Below are positions 1-10,123 of a DNA stretch of 11,731 nt, piece after piece (position 1 is the stretch's first letter; every line of letters starts with the position of its first letter). Both the position numbers and the translations under genes were made by a program. The notes below the pieces were generated by a model. That model was not told the origin of the DNA. It searched no databases and worked only from the letters and a program-made list of their open reading frames with translations. Source of the stretch: a virus (taxonomy: Duplodnaviria; Heunggongvirae; Uroviricota; Caudoviricetes); the IMG/VR virus record IMGVR_UViG_2690316156_000010; one strand, written 5' to 3'.

Positions 1-486
1 ATGGGTGGCGCGGTAAACCAGACTACGATCAATAATGGAGTGCTACAGGTTTATGGCGCGGCGACTGATCCCACGATTAAAGGAGGGCGCGGTGATGCGG
101 CATTTACGTTGGGCAATGCCGGAAGCGTTGTTGATATCAGTACGTATGAATATACCTTGCTGGATAATGGCAACCATAGCTGGAGTCTCGCAGAGAATCG
201 CGTACAAATGCCCCCTTCAACCACGGATGTGCTGAATATGGCGGCAGCACAACCGCTGGTATTTGATGCAGAACTGGACACCGTGCGTGGGCGTCTTGGT
301 AGCGTAAAAGGCGTTAATTACGATACGGCGATGTGGAGTTCGGTAATTAACAGCCGCAACAACGTGAACACTGATGCGGGAGCTGGCTTTGAGCAAACAT
401 TGACGGGCCTGACGCTCGGTATCGACAGCCGTTTCTCCCGTGAAGAAAGCAGCACAACTCAGGCGGGTGTGGTCTGGACGTTCTGA
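1..486 (+). pseudogene. Autotransporter (AIDA-I/Ag43-type) C-terminal remnant; ORF enters from beyond the window start and appears internally deleted
   Basis: Translation shows the passenger/linker-to-barrel junction (…AAAQPLVFDAELDTVRGRLGSV…MWSSVINSRNN…GLTLGIDSRF) then jumps to a barrel-end-like …VVWTF and stops, with the ~250 aa beta-barrel body missing. The Met at position 1 is probably internal. Confidence 0.4.
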
Positions 487-1336: not shown

Positions 1337-1618
1337 TTACGTACGCAGTCGTTCCGGCTTCTTCCAGTGGTACGTTATTTTCTCCTTCTCCCGATACATC
1401 TCCACGCGGCGACGGTAGGCCAGCAACTCAAGAACTCTGGTTCGTATGTTGCGCATATCCACGCCATTAAGTTCTATACCATCACGGCGCATCACCTCAG
1501 CAACAACACGCACATAATTTTCAGCGGTCACGCTGTCCGGCTGTGTGGCCTGTTCGTCATGCTGCTGGCTGATTCCGGTAACGCGGCGGATTAATCCCAG
1601 TAGTTCGGCTTCTGTCAT
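1337..1618 (-). CDS. Hypothetical protein, 93 aa
   Basis: ATG at 1618-1616 with a G-rich SD about 5 nt upstream; balanced charged/helical composition (MTEAELLGLIRRVTG…). The overlapping plus-strand ORF 1301-1594 is H/L-rich and less protein-like. It sits beyond the cosB side of the cos region, where a phage would carry terS. Confidence 0.45.
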   Translation of the reverse strand: MTEAELLGLIRRVTGISQQHDEQATQPDSVTAENYVRVVAEVMRRDGIELNGVDMRNIRTRVLELLAYRRRVEMYREKEKITYHWKKPERLRT

Positions 1619-1649
1619 TGTGCCCCCATCGCTCTGATAGTCTGGTGTC

Positions 1650-1716
1650 GTCGGGTCCTTCCTGGAATTATGGCCCGTTACGGGGCGGCGACCTCGCGGT
1701 TTTTCGCTATTTATGA
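1650..1716 (+). other. Lambda-type cos site, copy 1 (cosQ-like + cosN + truncated cosB)
   Basis: Reads CGGGTCCTTCCTGG…CCCGTTACG|GGGCGGCGACCT|CGCGGTTTTTCGCTATTTATGA. The 12-nt cohesive-end sequence GGGCGGCGACCT is at 1683-1694 and the flanks match the lambda cos junction as I recall it. No R-type repeats follow. Confidence 0.7.
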
Positions 1717-2052
1717 GATTTTTTGAGGGGGTGGTTGTTGTTTAATTGTTTGGTATATCTAATTGATAAGTAAGGTAAAAATAAAATAAATACAACAACC
1801 TTACGATGTATTTTGATGTCATTAATGTGAAAAAATTCAATGATATCAAATGGTTTTGTAAAAACACATGGTTGTTGTATCGCGTATTTGATGGCGTAAC
1901 AGAAAGTGATTTTTAACTTTACCGCTCTGTAACTACGGATTATTCCATGCTGGCACGGAGAACGGCTACGGCATGACGCCACCCAGCCTATACAGAACAG
2001 TAAAGCCGATAAATTGTTAATCACGCGCAGCAATGCGTGTGATTTTTGCACA

Positions 2053-2250
2053 CTTCCGGTTAACGGGTACGATGTCCGGTTTTAGTGTCTGTTTTTTGCG
2101 CATGTCCGGTTCATAGAAAGCATGTTTTTATATTTTTCATATGGTTAACTTGCAGAGAAACCGGACATGGATCCCGGAAAATTTTCATAAATAGTGAAAA
2201 CGCGCGAGGTCGCCGCCCCGTAACGGGTCCATATGCCGGAAAGGACCCGT
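2053..2250 (-). other. Lambda-type cos site, copy 2 (cosQ-like + cosN + full cosB-like region), inverted relative to copy 1
   Basis: Reverse complement of 2171-2260 reads ACGGGTCCTTTCCGGCATATGGACCCGTTACG|GGGCGGCGACCT|CGCGCGTTTTCACTATTTATGAAAATTTTCCGG. cosN is at 2207-2218 (AGGTCGCCGCCC on plus). Three copies of ATGTCCGGTT follow at 2159-2168 (inverted), 2102-2111 and 2072-2081, with an AT-rich stretch between the first two, as in an R3-I1-R2-R1 cosB. Confidence 0.8.
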
Positions 2251-2274
2251 AAAAAAAAGCCGGATTTCTCCGGC
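2251..2274 (-). terminator. Rho-independent terminator of the capsid operon
   Basis: GCCGGA (2259-2264), loop TTTC, TCCGGC (2269-2274); A8 on plus (2251-2258) gives a U8 tail on the minus transcript, 7 nt past the stop of the 137-aa ORF. Confidence 0.6.
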
Positions 2275-2280
2275 CTTGTC

Positions 2281-2694
2281 TCAGATGGTTTTCAGTATGT
2301 GATCGATGTCGCCGTCATCGCCCTGGTTTCTGCCATCGTATGCCATGCCAGCTGATACGGCTTGCGGGCTGTGCATGTCCATAAAGTTTTCAAAGGCTGC
2401 GGTAAGCTCTGGTGCAACCTTTGGGCGCTCCTGCTCTATGGTCATGTTCAGGATTTCACGAGCATTATCGACGCTAATACATGGCACGTTTGCCATTGCA
2501 CGTAACAGCGGCTGATAGTCGTTATGTTCATGAAGCGCCATAATCGCATCAGCGCGCGGCTTGTCCTGTTCTTCCAGTTTGTTGAGTTGATATACGGCCT
2601 CGTAGGTTGATAACCCTCTGTCAGCCATTGCCCGCGCTTCGGCTTTAAATTTACTCGCCAGCGGTAGCGCCATGATGCTTTCATTCGTTGCCAT
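2281..2694 (-). CDS. Hypothetical protein, 137 aa, last gene of the capsid operon (positionally like lambda gpFI; unverified)
   Basis: ATG at 2694-2692 with SD AGGGGGAA about 4 nt upstream, 12 nt after the gpD-like stop; acidic C-terminus. No motif-level similarity to lambda FI that I can confirm. Confidence 0.55.
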   Translation of the reverse strand: MATNESIMALPLASKFKAEARAMADRGLSTYEAVYQLNKLEEQDKPRADAIMALHEHNDYQPLLRAMANVPCISVDNAREILNMTIEQERPKVAPELTAAFENFMDMHSPQAVSAGMAYDGRNQGDDGDIDHILKTI

Positions 2695-2706
2695 CGTTCC
2701 CCCTGC

Positions 2707-3042
2707 TTATCGGGCCAGCGGCTGAACGGATACGCCAGAACCCGCAAAGGCGGCGCATTTTTTCGCATCGGTGTCGACGCTCTCAGGCCAGTTAACGGCG
2801 GCGATATTGAATATCCCCGTCTTATAGCACTGTGCTGATTTCTGCGTCGACGTGTCAACGGGGTACGAGGTCAGATAAACAGCCTTGCCAGATTCCTGAC
2901 CATCCCACGGCTTAAACTCGCCATTGTCCGCCAGCATCAGCGGGGTAAATTCCTGAATAACGCCAGCATCAGCGGCAAAATGTACCAGCGTCGTTGATAC
3001 CTGCTGACTGCCTGCAAATAACTCAATGTATGGAGTGTTCAT
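2707..3042 (-). CDS. Head decoration protein, lambda gpD-like (111 aa)
   Basis: Motifs TPLMLAD, KPWDG, WPE, KK.AAFAG align with lambda gpD as recalled; size matches (lambda gpD is 110 aa). I place the start at ATG 3042-3040 with SD GGTGGA; the track's start at 3051 is a GTG inside that SD. Confidence 0.75.
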   Translation of the reverse strand: MNTPYIELFAGSQQVSTTLVHFAADAGVIQEFTPLMLADNGEFKPWDGQESGKAVYLTSYPVDTSTQKSAQCYKTGIFNIAAVNWPESVDTDAKKCAAFAGSGVSVQPLAR

Positions 3043-3053
3043 AGAATCCACCG

Positions 3054-4109
3054 TTAACCAATTTTGACGGTAACAAATTTGCGAATATCTGCCGGAACAG
3101 GCTGCGGTGCGCTGTGTGTCTGCACGTACTCAATCGCCGGATCGCCGTCTTCAATCCAGTTTTTCGGGTAAAACATGTTTTGCGTTGCGCCCGTTCTTAC
3201 CGCTTCCTGTTCCATAATCGCACCATAGGCCACCAGCCCTTTATTGTTGGTGTTGCCCAGGACCAGCAAATCAGGCTCAAGGAAATATTTTTCTGTGCCG
3301 TCGCTGTCAGTGTATTTGCCGGAATAGACGATAAGGGCCAGATCACCAAGATAGCCTTTAAAGCTCACCACTTCTCCCAGGTTTTTACATGCCAGCTCTG
3401 CGGCGGATTCTGAACCACGGGAGAGATCGTACAGTTCACGGAATTTTTTAAAGCTGCGTAACATGCGCCATACATCAACGCCCATAATCATGACGTTTGC
3501 GGGGCAACCTGCCTGATCTGCGTATAGCTCAATGTCATAGATTGGGTCGTGTATGTCTTTGTCCTGCTCTGACCATTTTTTACCGTCGGCCTGCTCTATG
3601 ATGTTTTTTTCCGGTATCTTCCAGTCGATTTCATAGCGCTCTATGCCTTCGCCCTCAATGATGTTTTTTCCGGTCGTTACCGCATTTACCGCCAGCCATT
3701 CCACGCGCGCTTTAATGGCGTTTATCTGGCGGCGCATGTTGCCAGTAATCAGGCGCATACGGCGGTAGGTAGGGTCGTTAAGCTGTGCTGGATCTTCTCC
3801 AGCCATGCGCATTATTGTTTTTAATGGATCGATTTCGTGTTTTGGCTTCATGTAGCCAGGGCGAATAATGCTTGTTTCGTACCCTTTATCGCGCTGAACC
3901 TGGCTACCCACCATAGGCGAACAAAACGCCGACATAGTGACTTCTTCAATATCCAGGTTATCTAACATGATGTCCTGTGTGTTGAATGTCGCCACGTTCG
4001 GGAAAAACAGCGCGGTAAACAGCGGACTGAATTTAAATTCCGCAATATCCTCGCGATTCAGGTACGCAAAAAGCTGGTTAGTGTTAAGTGATATTGCTTT
4101 TACTGTCAT
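3054..4109 (-). CDS. Major capsid protein, lambda gpE family (351 aa)
   Basis: Shared blocks with lambda gpE from memory: FKFSPLFTALFFP vs FKFDPLFLRLFFR; PGYMKPKHEIDP vs PGYVKPKHEVNP; EDPAQLNDPTYRRMRLI vs DEDPQNLADPAYRRRRII; YPKNWIEDGDPAIEYVQTHSAP vs YPKNWVTTGDPAREFTMIQSAP. ATG at 4109-4107 with SD GGGGGTGA; length close to lambda gpE (341 aa). Confidence 0.9.
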   Translation of the reverse strand: MTVKAISLNTNQLFAYLNREDIAEFKFSPLFTALFFPNVATFNTQDIMLDNLDIEEVTMSAFCSPMVGSQVQRDKGYETSIIRPGYMKPKHEIDPLKTIMRMAGEDPAQLNDPTYRRMRLITGNMRRQINAIKARVEWLAVNAVTTGKNIIEGEGIERYEIDWKIPEKNIIEQADGKKWSEQDKDIHDPIYDIELYADQAGCPANVMIMGVDVWRMLRSFKKFRELYDLSRGSESAAELACKNLGEVVSFKGYLGDLALIVYSGKYTDSDGTEKYFLEPDLLVLGNTNNKGLVAYGAIMEQEAVRTGATQNMFYPKNWIEDGDPAIEYVQTHSAPQPVPADIRKFVTVKIG

Positions 4110-4315
4110 TATTCACCCCCGTGAACCTGATTCATACCCAGCGCCGCGCGTAAATAGGCGCGTACCTGCCAGCCTGTTGACGGCTCAACCATCGCCAGCG
4201 GATCAAGTCCTGCCGCAATGCCTGCTTTTACGTTCTGCTGGTGGCGTTCCTTGAGCGCCTTCACGATGTCGGGGCTTATGTACACCGAAACACCGCCTTT
4301 TTTCTCTTCAGCCAT
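4109..4315 (-). CDS. Hypothetical protein, 68 aa, first gene of the capsid operon
   Basis: ATG at 4315-4313 with SD AGAGGAA about 9 nt upstream; its TAA overlaps the capsid ATG (TAATG), indicating translational coupling. No recognisable family. Confidence 0.5.
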   Translation of the reverse strand: MAEEKKGGVSVYISPDIVKALKERHQQNVKAGIAAGLDPLAMVEPSTGWQVRAYLRAALGMNQVHGGE

Positions 4316-8088: not shown

Positions 8089-8545
8089 GACTCCCCCCCT
8101 GGCGAATACGGGCGACAAAAATAAGATGTGCGTGCGGCAGCTGTGCACGTGCTTCGCGCTCAGTGGCAGCGGTAACGGTGAATATTGCAATACTGTCTGT
8201 CAGGCACTGCATAAAGCGCCAGACAAAATAAGGGCGTGCGGATACAGCCATGTGAAAGGCTCCCAGATGAATTTTAAGGAGTCTCGCTACTACGCTGTCA
8301 AACATGGTGGCGAGACGTAACAGGGTTGACAGACTGGTCATCTGGAAACCAGCGAGCACAAAGGCTCCCCCGTTACGCCCCGCCATAATGCGGGTATGGG
8401 TAGGTTTACGGACACAAAAAAACCGCTTATCGGATGTGGGCGGCTGTCCGCCAGATGTATTCAGGCTGTCAAACCCGGTCGCCATGTGGGCGACGGGGGA
8501 AGCATACAGCCCCGTGATAATTTTTTGCAAGCGGTTTTTACGCAT
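8081..8545 (-). CDS. Repeat-unit ORF B (154 aa from ATG 8545) ending in an Icd-like small domain; an internal SD+ATG at 8251 could give an independent 56-aa product
   Basis: C-terminal 56 aa MAVSARPYFVWRF…TEREARAQLPHAHLIFVARIRQGGSHA is paralogous to two other copies; GGGAG lies 8 nt before the internal ATG at 8251. The ATG at 8545 overlaps the stop of ORF A. Icd-like assignment is from memory of similarly annotated small proteins in P4/PICI elements. Confidence 0.45.
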   Translation of the reverse strand: MRKNRLQKIITGLYASPVAHMATGFDSLNTSGGQPPTSDKRFFCVRKPTHTRIMAGRNGGAFVLAGFQMTSLSTLLRLATMFDSVVARLLKIHLGAFHMAVSARPYFVWRFMQCLTDSIAIFTVTAATEREARAQLPHAHLIFVARIRQGGSHA

Positions 8546-9095
8546 GATGTGACCCCTGACGAATACGAGCGGCAAATACAGCAACACAACCTGACGGGCA
8601 ACGGCTACGCGCTTCGCGTTCTGTCCAGGCGGTTACGTGGATGATTTGAGATTCTGACGCGCCAAAGATGATAAAGCGCCAGATAAATGCGGTTTGAGAA
8701 TGTACAAGGGTAGGGATAGTAGCCATGTTGGCAGCCTCCTCAGTGTGGTTAAGATAACCGCCACGCAAAAGGCTAATTTCGCTGGTGGCGGACTGTACAG
8801 GGTTAGCCTTACCGGACACTGAAGAAACCGGCGCGGATTGCTCCGCCCCCGTACAGCCCACCATTGATAAGGTGTGACTATGCGGCACAAAAAAACACGC
8901 GGGGCGCGTGCTGTGCGCTTCAGTTGTTTTCAGGAGGCTAATCCCGACACCCGTTTTATGAGGTGCGCGGGAATCATAGCCATTTTTGCTGGTGGCGATC
9001 AAGCGGTTTTTTTCTCCGGCACTCAGTGCCAGAAAACGCCACACAAAGGCCGTTTGTGTGTGTACAAGGTGTGGTATATGATTTACGGCAACCAT
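8538..9095 (-). CDS. Repeat-unit ORF A (185 aa from ATG 9095) carrying two Icd-like repeats; an internal SD+ATG at 8726 could give an independent 62-aa product
   Basis: N-terminal copy MVAVNHIPHLVHTQTAFVWRF (SD GGAG before 9095) and C-terminal copy MATIPTLVHSQTAFIWRF…TEREARSRC…FAARIRQGSHHA (SD GAGGAGG before 8726). Between the copies, differences are mostly synonymous in this frame (CAT/CAC, ACC/ACG, GCA/GCC, CGC/CGT) and non-synonymous in the plus frame, which supports minus-strand coding. Confidence 0.45.
   Translation of the reverse strand: MVAVNHIPHLVHTQTAFVWRFLALSAGEKNRLIATSKNGYDSRAPHKTGVGISLLKTTEAHSTRPACFFVPHSHTLSMVGCTGAEQSAPVSSVSGKANPVQSATSEISLLRGGYLNHTEEAANMATIPTLVHSQTAFIWRFIIFGASESQIIHVTAWTEREARSRCPSGCVAVFAARIRQGSHHA
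8889..8910 (-). terminator. Intrinsic-terminator-like hairpin plus U7 inside ORF A (possible attenuator)
   Basis: On the minus transcript CACGCG-CCC-CGCGUG followed by UUUUUUU (plus 8896-8910 with A7 at 8889-8895), about 190 nt after the ORF A start; the U-run encodes the conserved CFFV residues. Confidence 0.35.
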
Positions 9096-9404: not shown

Positions 9405-9461
9405 AAACTATCAGCGCCGTGGTGTGAGGTACTCCGGCGCATTGCTTTACAGGCGCACACA

Positions 9462-9638
9462 ATGACCAACGAAGAATCAACCGAAAAAACATCACCTGCA
9501 CGAAAAAGACGACGCAGAAAGAAAGAGCATGAATCAGAACGATTCGCGCCGTGTTCTTTTGCCCTTGAGAAGTACCTTAAAGAATACTCATCAAAGGAGA
9601 GAGCTTCGCAGTTATGGCAACGAACTGAACCAGACTGA
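9462..9638 (+). CDS. Possible small basic protein (58 aa) downstream of the RHH gene; coding status uncertain
   Basis: ATG at 9462, weak SD, Lys/Arg-rich N-terminus (ARKRRRRKK). An alternative plus frame (9529-9780) and an antisense ORF also exist, so the true product here is unresolved. Confidence 0.2.
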   Translation: MTNEESTEKTSPARKRRRRKKEHESERFAPCSFALEKYLKEYSSKERASQLWQRTEPD

Positions 9639-9734
9639 TTGCATTGCCCACCAGCCTGATAGCGGCTATCATCCCCGTGCTTATGTTTGGGATCACACAC
9701 ACAAACAGCGCAGCGGGTTATCTGTTCAGAAAGA

Positions 9735-9760
9735 CGGCTCCATATCGGGGCCGCTTTTTT
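9735..9760 (+). terminator. Candidate rho-independent terminator for the plus-strand RHH transcript
   Basis: CGGCTCC (9735-9741), loop ATATC, GGGGCCG (9747-9753), then TTTTTT (9755-9760). Confidence 0.4.
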
Positions 9761-9786
9761 CGTGTTTGTCATATCTGTGATACCCG

Positions 9787-9993
9787 TTAAGCAGCCGTTC
9801 CGCGTGCTTCCTCTTCGCGTTCTTTCTGCCAGGACAACACATCATCCTCATACCATCCGCGACGGCGTAAACCAACGCGAAAACCCTGCGGAAATTCTCC
9901 GGCGTTGATCATGCTTTGCAGCGTGCTGTCTGCCTTGATGTGGATAATTTTTTTTACTTCCTGGCGAAAGATAATTTTTCTGATTGCTTCCAT
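9787..9993 (-). CDS. alpA: AlpA-family (MerR-like HTH) transcriptional regulator, 68 aa
   Basis: …IRKIIFRQEV…STLQSMINAGEFPQGFRVGLRRRGWYEDDVLSWQ matches the AlpA pattern (…FP.p.klg.R.v.W.e.ev..W…) and the position just downstream of int is typical for PICI-type islands. ATG at 9993-9991. Confidence 0.7.
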   Translation of the reverse strand: MEAIRKIIFRQEVKKIIHIKADSTLQSMINAGEFPQGFRVGLRRRGWYEDDVLSWQKEREEEARGTAA

Positions 9994-10123
9994 CGTGATT
10001 TACCTTGTGAATCCGGTGTATTCCGGTGACAAATACGGTAAATCATCAGATATGGGTAAAAACAGTTCCCACCGTTTTTAAACGGTATACACCGTTTTTT
10101 ATATTGATGATTTGAAATGGAAT

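Follow-up and report, generated by a model that had tools for sequence, protein, structure and literature searches.

A repeat array in an Escherichia coli satellite island matches the native cosB of a common group of lambda-like phages

The stretch of DNA analysed here (IMG/VR virus record IMGVR_UViG_2690316156_000010; 11,731 nt, hereafter the window) is a satellite at tRNA-Pro, a phage-inducible chromosomal island (PICI) of the EcCICFT073 family, and its tested stretch is 100% identical to a chromosomal island of Escherichia coli S1-CAM-02-A lying between yejO and tRNA-Pro. The minus strand of the island encodes an integrase, an AlpA-like helix-turn-helix (HTH) protein, Icd-like, Ash-like and DUF4222 proteins, a primase, SSB and a PerC-like regulator, together with a major capsid protein resembling lambda E (3054-4109), a D-like decoration protein (2707-3051) and a protein of 137 aa (2281-2694) whose weak similarity is to head proteases, in their C-terminal (scaffold) part. 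Beyond the cos sites, the same strand encodes a 93-aa protein with no assigned function. Family membership is indicated by int, an alpA-like gene, a primase/replication module, two convergent cos sites near the int-distal end and a specific chromosomal site. Gene set and gene order are those of EcCICFT073, the prototype Gram-negative PICI, and the capsid, decoration and 137-aa genes (2281-4109) are also present in CFT073. The two cos sites are of lambda type and lie 524 bp apart. Our subject is the repeat array that forms the cosB side of the right one and that probably, as argued below, mimics the cosB of a helper phage.

The first-pass annotation of this DNA had placed three copies of a short repeat, ATGTCCGGTT, next to the right cosN, on either side of an AT-rich stretch. 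The sequence, coordinates and strands of the three copies all proved exact (Table 1), as did the right cosN, which is the same as that of lambda, and the AT-rich stretch at 2115-2150, which is 78% A+T by direct count. A motif search of the 11.7-kb window found these three exact copies of ATGTCCGGTT and no others, all of them inside 97 bp, where 0.04 exact matches are expected per window and none of 200 dinucleotide-preserving shuffles produced three or more. Allowing one mismatch makes this a weaker whole-window test, with 10 of 200 shuffles reaching three copies.

Counting core positions from nucleotide 1 of cosN, and taking phage 21 I1 as annotated in its record, we compared the right cos with those of lambda and phage 21 and with the left cos (Table 1). 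The right cosN sits in a 72-nt inverted repeat common to the left cos. Lambda-type spacing, with R3 some 50-65 bp from the nick and an inverted R2 some 55-60 bp beyond, is found in the right cos, and the unit of R3, IHF-like site and R2 keeps its place across four repeat sequences. The spacer between R3 and R2 contains a candidate site for integration host factor (IHF), TTTCATATGGTTA, with two mismatches to WATCAANNNNTTR; this is a consensus match only, on the strand and at the position of lambda and phage 21 I1, which themselves have two mismatches (lambda, 74-86) and one mismatch (annotated phage 21 I1, 74-86) to the consensus. The first-pass annotation had described the array as mirroring the lambda R3-I1-R2-R1 layout, a description that fits R3, the IHF-like site and R2 by position and does not fit the third copy, whose orientation and spacing are different. 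A 25-nt direct repeat (2037-2061 and 2087-2111, 80% identity) adds a degenerate fourth copy, ACTTCCGGTT, that is probably non-functional; R2 and its flank have been duplicated, leaving this copy in the island-specific segment. It is more decayed in cos2 of CFT073, where it reads AACCGAAAGT on the cos strand.

Table 1. Features of the two cos sites, their geometry relative to cosN, and segments of the window matched in CFT073.
Feature	Position (window unless stated)	Strand	Basis or remark
Right cosQ heptamer GGGTCCT	2242-2248	-	direct reading; block conserved with PhiR12_1 and left cos
Right cosN GGGCGGCGACCT	2207-2218	-	exact match to lambda cohesive end
R3-equivalent ATGTCCGGTT	2159-2168	-	cosN-relative 51-60; position as in lambda and phage 21 R3
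IHF-like site TTTCATATGGTTA	2135-2147	+	in A+T-rich spacer; cosN-relative 72-84, bottom strand of cos
R2-equivalent ATGTCCGGTT, inverted relative to R3	2102-2111	+	cosN-relative 108-117; position and orientation as lambda and phage 21 R2
Third ATGTCCGGTT copy, R2 orientation	2072-2081	+	cosN-relative 138-147; island-phage homology ends here
Degenerate fourth copy ACTTCCGGTT	2052-2061	+	part of 25-nt duplicated unit
Terminator-like hairpin and T run	2256-2277	-	between 137-aa gene and cosQ; 9-pair stem, 5 G-C pairs
rppA 3'-end remnant	1922-1987	-	22 codons, internal stop; tblastn with RppA, E=1.7e-5
Left cosQ heptamer GGGTCCT	1653-1659	+	direct reading and alignment
Left cosN GGGCGGCGACCT	1683-1694	+	exact match; convergent with right cos
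Left cosB, three copies of GGTTGTTGT	1733-1741 (+), 1792-1800 (-), 1870-1878 (+)		repeat analysis
Left-cos IHF-like site	1756-1768		predicted, in left cosB 1733-1878
Geometry of right cos	cosN-relative: R3 51-58; IHF-like 72-84; R2 110-117; third 140-147		R3 forward; IHF-like on bottom strand; R2 inverted; third copy inverted
Geometry of lambda	cosN-relative: R3 53-59; IHF site 74-86; R2 114-120; R1 154-160		R1 forward
Geometry of phage 21	cosN-relative: R3 55-60; IHF site 74-86; R2 112-117; R1 155-160		R1 forward
Geometry of left cos	cosN-relative: R3 51-58; IHF-like 74-86; R2 111-118; third 188-195		third copy forward
Segment matching CFT073 8450-9022	2748-2175		92.7%; 137-aa gene and cosQ/cosN side of cos1
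Segment matching CFT073 9760-9495, inverted	2249-1984		94.4%; cos2 including its cosB
Segment matching CFT073 9445-9516	1988-1917		84.7%; final 72 bp of rppA
Segment matching CFT073 9688-10059	1724-1353		89.8%; cosQ side of cos2 and 93-aa gene

The ATGTCCGGTT array is also the native cosB of viable PhiR12 phages and of E. coli prophages, at 86-94% identity. Taken as a whole, from cosQ through the three repeats (window 2255-2072), the right cos arm matches the cos of five PhiR12 phages at 94.1% identity; their records name the host as E. coli K-12 MG1655 or E. coli C. In these phages a Nu1-like terS follows immediately, then terL, W and portal. Homology between island and phages stops exactly past the third repeat. 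From R3 to the third copy, the array was detected in 1185 of 5426 complete E. coli genomes (22%), at 1910 places. In the five prophages that we examined (O157:H7, ST131, 08-00022, M8 and STEC711), a 169-aa small terminase subunit (TerS), which is WP_000235436.1 in three of them, is encoded about 50 bp past the array, followed by the large subunit (TerL), W and portal. We read the array as a trimmed version of a cosB that is native to a common group of lambda-like E. coli phages, among them PhiR12 and prophages of O157:H7 and ST131. The chromosome of the island's host (NZ_CP145707.1) matches the array at three places, the island and two others, and the two extra copies could belong to cognate helper prophages. 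The CFT073 chromosome holds no second copy of the array, and is therefore without a resident cognate prophage. A literature search on the PhiR12 phages returned unrelated papers only. The pattern ATGTCCGGN{45,55}CCGGACAT, run against 596 Gb of species-representative genomes, has too few specified bases (16), and the matches listed were chance ones in unrelated taxa.

The R3-equivalent copy is invariant in 24/24 distinct phage and prophage cos sequences, single-base variants of the R2-equivalent copy are rare among phage copies, and the third repeat has one polymorphic column. In a set of 23 distinct phage and prophage copies, variation is lower in the repeats than over the remainder of positions 41-155 (nucleotide diversity, pi, of 0.026 vs 0.109), and 345 of 20000 random placements were as low. 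Most phage copies carry in addition an inverted copy, ATGACCGGTT, that overlaps the third repeat (4183-4192 of phage record L002, and equivalent positions of the prophages) and forms with it a near-palindrome, AACCGGACATGACCGGTT.

We then compared the small terminases encoded next to each array, calling B2 type the TerS beside the right-type array (WP_000235436-like) and B3 type the TerS beside the left-type array (WP_001426432, WP_032211162). Past residue ~55 the two types have 84-85% identity, which is complete over roughly their final 85 residues; in the N-terminal ~50 residues it is only 16% (genes at 3156-3665 of record L004 and 3189-3695 of record L006). The B2 N-terminal domain is 17% identical to that of lambda Nu1 and 21% identical to that of phage 21 gp1. 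Pfam Phage_Nu1 (PF07471) covers residues 6-149 of the B3 TerS and only residues 49-150 of the B2 TerS WP_000235436 (profile 62-163). In its C-terminal two-thirds the B2 TerS is of the customary Nu1 type, and at the N-terminus it has a different, putatively HTH, domain.

To relate array type to TerS type, we used IMG/VR loci fetched through the TerS protein, a sample that is blind to the DNA motif. All 77 B2 loci with enough upstream sequence had at least two copies of TGTCCGG (three in 72 of them) and none had GTTGTTG, and all 73 B3 loci with cosN in range had copies of GTTGTTG (three in 72) and none had TGTCCGG. Array type and TerS domain thus co-vary perfectly, in 150/150 loci. Since B2 and B3 TerS share their C-terminal part yet differ at the N-terminus, cosB and the TerS DNA-binding domain appear to be exchanged together as a module, in a natural domain swap on one terminase chassis. 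The mosaic breakpoint inside terS, with shared cosQ and cosN on the other side, repeats the modular pattern by which the lambda and 21 specificities are defined (PMC4669245). The first-pass annotation had read the array as a cosB with a repeat unlike the lambda R sites, which these data support, and had proposed a small terminase of other than Nu1 specificity as one possible reader; the position of the native array upstream of a distinct TerS domain, and the co-variation of the two, point to the same conclusion.

The B2 N-terminal domain was also examined by itself. A homology search with its 62 N-terminal residues returned near-identical E. coli sequences only, many of them truncated open reading frame (ORF) calls, and no satellite protein; the B2 TerS had no match among PDB sequences at E<=0.01. 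In a single-sequence AlphaFold2 model of the B2 TerS, residues 1-52 (predicted local distance difference test, pLDDT, ~78) form a helix, a helix, a loop and a long helix, with helices at 4-10, 15-22 and 38-52.

The array probably forms the cosB part of a complete lambda-type cos and mimics helper cosB, and it would be read by a non-lambda TerS without any satellite factor. From the comparisons above we infer TerS binding, a role for IHF and the actual packaging of the island, as follows. In an island-carrying cell, a lambda-like helper of the PhiR12/O157 type would supply its own TerS, which would bind the right cosB at R3 and R2 and perhaps also at the third copy. A TerS dimer probably links R3 with R2 over a bend introduced by IHF in the A+T-rich spacer, as has been proposed for R3-I1-R2 in lambda (PMC9026076). 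TerS would then anchor the helper TerL to nick the island cosN, so that recognition of the island would need no satellite protein. Island concatemers would be packaged leftwards in window coordinates, passing the left cos and ending at the next right cos; the orientation of the left cos is wrong for cosQ-dependent termination. A helper with a B3-type TerS would use the left cos, and package in the opposite direction.

This proposal has to be set against what has been published on EcCICFT073, which has two cos sites, both of them resembling lambda in cosQ and cosN (Fillol-Salom et al. 2018, 2019; PMC6092414, PMC6739421). In that work, 'the phage cosB' was not identifiable in either site, the cosB of phage 4 included; transfer by lambda and phi80 required cos1; and RppA (c1503, 144 aa) heterodimerised with the helper TerS to give a complex that reads the cos1 cosB (PMC6092414, PMC6739421). 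Cloned cos2 renders a plasmid transferable by phage, poorly so by lambda and phi80, and the reason why some PICIs have two cos sites was left open by the authors (PMC6092414, PMC6739421). With RppA, transfer rose for plasmids bearing the cos1 cosB and did not rise for plasmids bearing that of cos2 (PMC6739421). The cos2 sequence published by Fillol-Salom et al. (their Fig. S1A) contains all three repeats, and its cosB is the array. Murialdo and Feiss (2022) analyse cos1 only, without mention of cos2 (PMC9026076). In the searchable literature cos2 is mentioned in no further paper, and we found there no description of its repeat structure or of its reader, the sequence itself being published. 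The behaviour reported for cos2 (inefficient use by lambda and phi80, indifference to RppA, dispensability with these helpers) fits lambda and phi80 being non-cognate helpers.

A blastn map of the island against CFT073 (Table 1) revealed that the two elements combine the same parts differently. The right cos joins a cosQ flank of the CFT073 cos1 type to a cosB of the cos2 type, and the left cos joins a cos2-type cosQ flank to a third cosB. Where cos1 of CFT073 is followed by rppA, only the 3' end of that gene is left in the island, with the translation AGWRHAVAVLRASME ending in a stop, and no intact rpp lies adjacent. The cos1-type cosB (GTGAAGGTGACACCACCACC...) is not matched either: the sequence following cosN differs from cos1 of both CFT073 and NCTC86, and three exact repeats are present instead. 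The island has thus lost rppA together with the Rpp-specific cosB, the cos1 position now holding a cos2-type cosB and the cos2 position a third type. This arrangement, over at least 80% of window 1600-2300, was found in 14/5426 complete genomes and the cos1-rppA junction in 97/5426; NCTC86 has cos1-rppA plus a third-type cos2. Cos modules have evidently been shuffled at cosN, by repeated exchange or inversion among islands and phages.

The left cos offers a parallel case. Its cosB, built on the repeat GGTTGTTGT, is the native cosB of prophages with TerS WP_001426432 or WP_032211162. Prophages with this cosB, placed upstream of a TerS whose N-terminal domain is different, occur in 299/5426 complete E. 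coli genomes. Homology between island and phages again ceases just past the third repeat (window 1883-1895), so that trimming of the phage-derived segment right behind the last repeat is common to the two cos sites. Applied to the left-type arrays, a more diverse set, the footprint test gave 2 of 20000 random placements as low as the repeats. These parallels raise the possibility, to which we give an even chance, of a 'two-key' satellite, in a lineage of EcCICFT073-type PICIs that abandoned Rpp retargeting for two convergent, minimally trimmed copies of two distinct helper cosB modules, each keyed to one TerS-domain variant on a shared TerS/TerL chassis. In that case cos2 would be the main packaging origin with PhiR12- or O157-type helpers, and ATGTCCGGTT and GGTTGTTGT would join lambda, 21 and N15, the documented cos specificities in the searchable literature according to a 2015 paper, as natural packaging specificities.

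Several observations weigh against a helper-cosB mimic read by TerS alone. The third copy is oriented like R2 and starts 30 bp from it, whereas R1 of lambda and 21 is oriented like R3. The islands do not have the extra inverted copy ATGACCGGTT, which is also altered in a few phage variants. The footprint test on the right-type array is modest, with p rising to ~0.10 when one deletion variant is kept and gaps are counted. Linkage alone could explain the co-occurrence of array and TerS type, cosB lying only ~50 bp from the 5' end of terS. Alignment of the B2 domain with the Nu1, gp1, B3 and RppA domains by hhalign was in register, at a probability of 13%, and a Foldseek search of PDB with the model of the B2 domain gave no significant match, the top ones being MerR-type winged HTH domains and RppC ranking 20th. 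Finally, transfer of EcCICFT073 by lambda and phi80 did not suffer from the deletion of cos2, and even rose (PMC6092414).

This last result is also an argument for the array being a passenger, gained by recombination at cosN, in an island that uses cosQ and cosN only or initiates at the other cos. The differing cosQ/cosB pairings of the island and CFT073, which point to frequent exchange at cosN, agree with such an origin. However, with lambda and phi80 as non-cognate helpers, the deletion test could not show function. The array occupies a different positional context in CFT073, and yet is held at 94-97% identity, with the three repeats exact, across islands of differing architecture; the trimming of both phage-derived segments right behind the last repeat likewise counts against a passenger. 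Moreover, no Rpp-dependent cos is left in the island, and therefore at least one of the two phage-type cosB must work if the island is still mobile. We regard a passenger as unlikely, though the most probable of the rival readings.

Less probable still is that the array is read by a TerS of the phage 21 type, such as that which Murialdo and Feiss assign to prophage 4 of CFT073. The R boxes of phage 21 are CGTGTCGG, CATGTCGG and CCGACATG, and the core of the array, CATGTCCGG, resembles the 21 core CATGTCGG plus one base, at the same positions. That additional base, however, is a 1-bp insertion within the core that would shift contacts, and smaller differences are enough for lambda and 21 to discriminate by more than 1000-fold (PMC4669245). 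In 77/77 loci the array is paired with a TerS domain that has 21% identity to 21 gp1, and Fillol-Salom et al. failed to identify a phage cosB, including that of phage 4, in the island.

The first-pass annotation had offered, as its other possible reader, a satellite-encoded factor that retargets the helper terminase. Such a reading, in which a heterodimer of an Rpp-type adaptor and helper TerS recognizes the ATGTCCGGTT array, has a precedent in the same family, Rpp-TerS retargeting being proven for the sister site cos1 of EcCICFT073 (PMC6739421). The published mechanism acts on cos1, however, and RppA boosted plasmids with the cos1 cosB without effect on those with the cosB of the array (PMC6739421). 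The content of the island argues against it as well: rppA is down to 22 codons with a stop, and when RppA, both TerS types, lambda Nu1 and phage 21 gp1 were used as tblastn queries, this remnant was the one match in the window, with no other TerS- or Rpp-like ORF. Four small island proteins searched against PDB had no relative there, although RppC is in PDB. The array is, besides, native to phages with their own cognate TerS, and we consider an adaptor very improbable. Short inverted and direct repeats around an A+T-rich stretch are typical of operators, but a role in transcription regulation, as operator or promoter sites in place of packaging signals, is scarcely credible given that no sigma-70-like promoter was found in 1600-2350 (shuffles average 1.9) and no Rfam family matches in 1500-2400, that the array keeps a fixed distance from cosN in phages and islands, and that no intact island gene lies downstream of it.

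The array can also be compared with known systems. It shares with EcCICFT073 cos2 essentially the same DNA in the same element family (int, alpA-like, primase, SSB, PerC, capsid, decoration, 93-aa ORF), but in the island it stands at the cos1 position beside the 137-aa gene, joined to a cos1-type cosQ flank. It resembles the cosB of lambda and phage 21, whose readers are the winged HTH of gpNu1 and gp1, in cosQ, cosN, the distances of R3 and inverted R2, a candidate IHF site at the I1 position, the terS that follows in the phage versions, and the modular exchange of cosB with the TerS N-terminus. It differs from them in its repeat (ATGTCCGGTT, against CGTTTCC in lambda and (C/G)(A/G)TGTCGG in phage 21), in a third copy that is parallel to R2 and nearer, and in an associated TerS N-terminus with 17-21% identity to Nu1 and gp1. 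Like the Rpp-dependent PICI cos1, for which Murialdo and Feiss (2022) proposed an R3-PICI, it belongs to a satellite cos in which cosQ and cosN are lambda-like and cosB is not; cos1, in contrast, is without repeated R or I1 and needs the Rpp-TerS heterodimer, whereas the array has three repeats, occurs in phages and lies in an island without rpp. Satellites of the SaPIbov5 type similarly carry the cos of the helper phage, so that unmodified helper terminase packages them (PMC6092414), but they belong to another host and phage family, and the island has two different helper cosB types in convergent orientation.

Known already are the sequence, as EcCICFT073 cos2, the strategy of helper-cos mimicry, from SaPIbov5, and the complex cosB layout of lambda type. 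New here are the recognition of the repeats and of their lambda-like geometry, the natural phage group and TerS domain identified as going with them, a parallel at the left cos, and an rpp-less island variant that would rely on two helper-cosB mimics. Packaging specificity sets which phages move which islands, and hence cargo, between E. coli strains. If the proposal is true, this PICI family would be mobilisable directly, without Rpp, by prophages of a group that is found in about one in five complete E. coli genomes, O157:H7 and ST131 prophages included. Why there are two cos sites, and what cos2 does, becomes testable with available phages such as PhiR12_1. The two further natural pairs of TerS domain and cosB, on an otherwise identical chassis, would be useful for studying DNA recognition by small terminases and for orthogonal cosmid or transduction systems.

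The surroundings of the cos sites gave some additional observations. The hairpin at 2277-2256, read on the minus strand, is predicted to be a strong intrinsic terminator-like element closing the capsid-gene operon just before cosQ. The attachment site differs between the two elements, the island being at tRNA-Pro and the CFT073 element beside phoQ on its cos-distal side. Because a weak copy of the tRNA-Pro 3' end lies at window ~580-594, sequence suggests an element of ~11.4 kb with both cos sites inside. Window 1-486 is the 3' part of the yejO autotransporter gene, which is a pseudogene with an internal stop in RefSeq. Near both presumed island ends (window ~652-685, and 22163-22223 of record L001), a 12-13-nt motif, CGTATAACTAAA, forms clusters of direct and inverted copies, which may be arm-type binding sites for integrase or excisionase.

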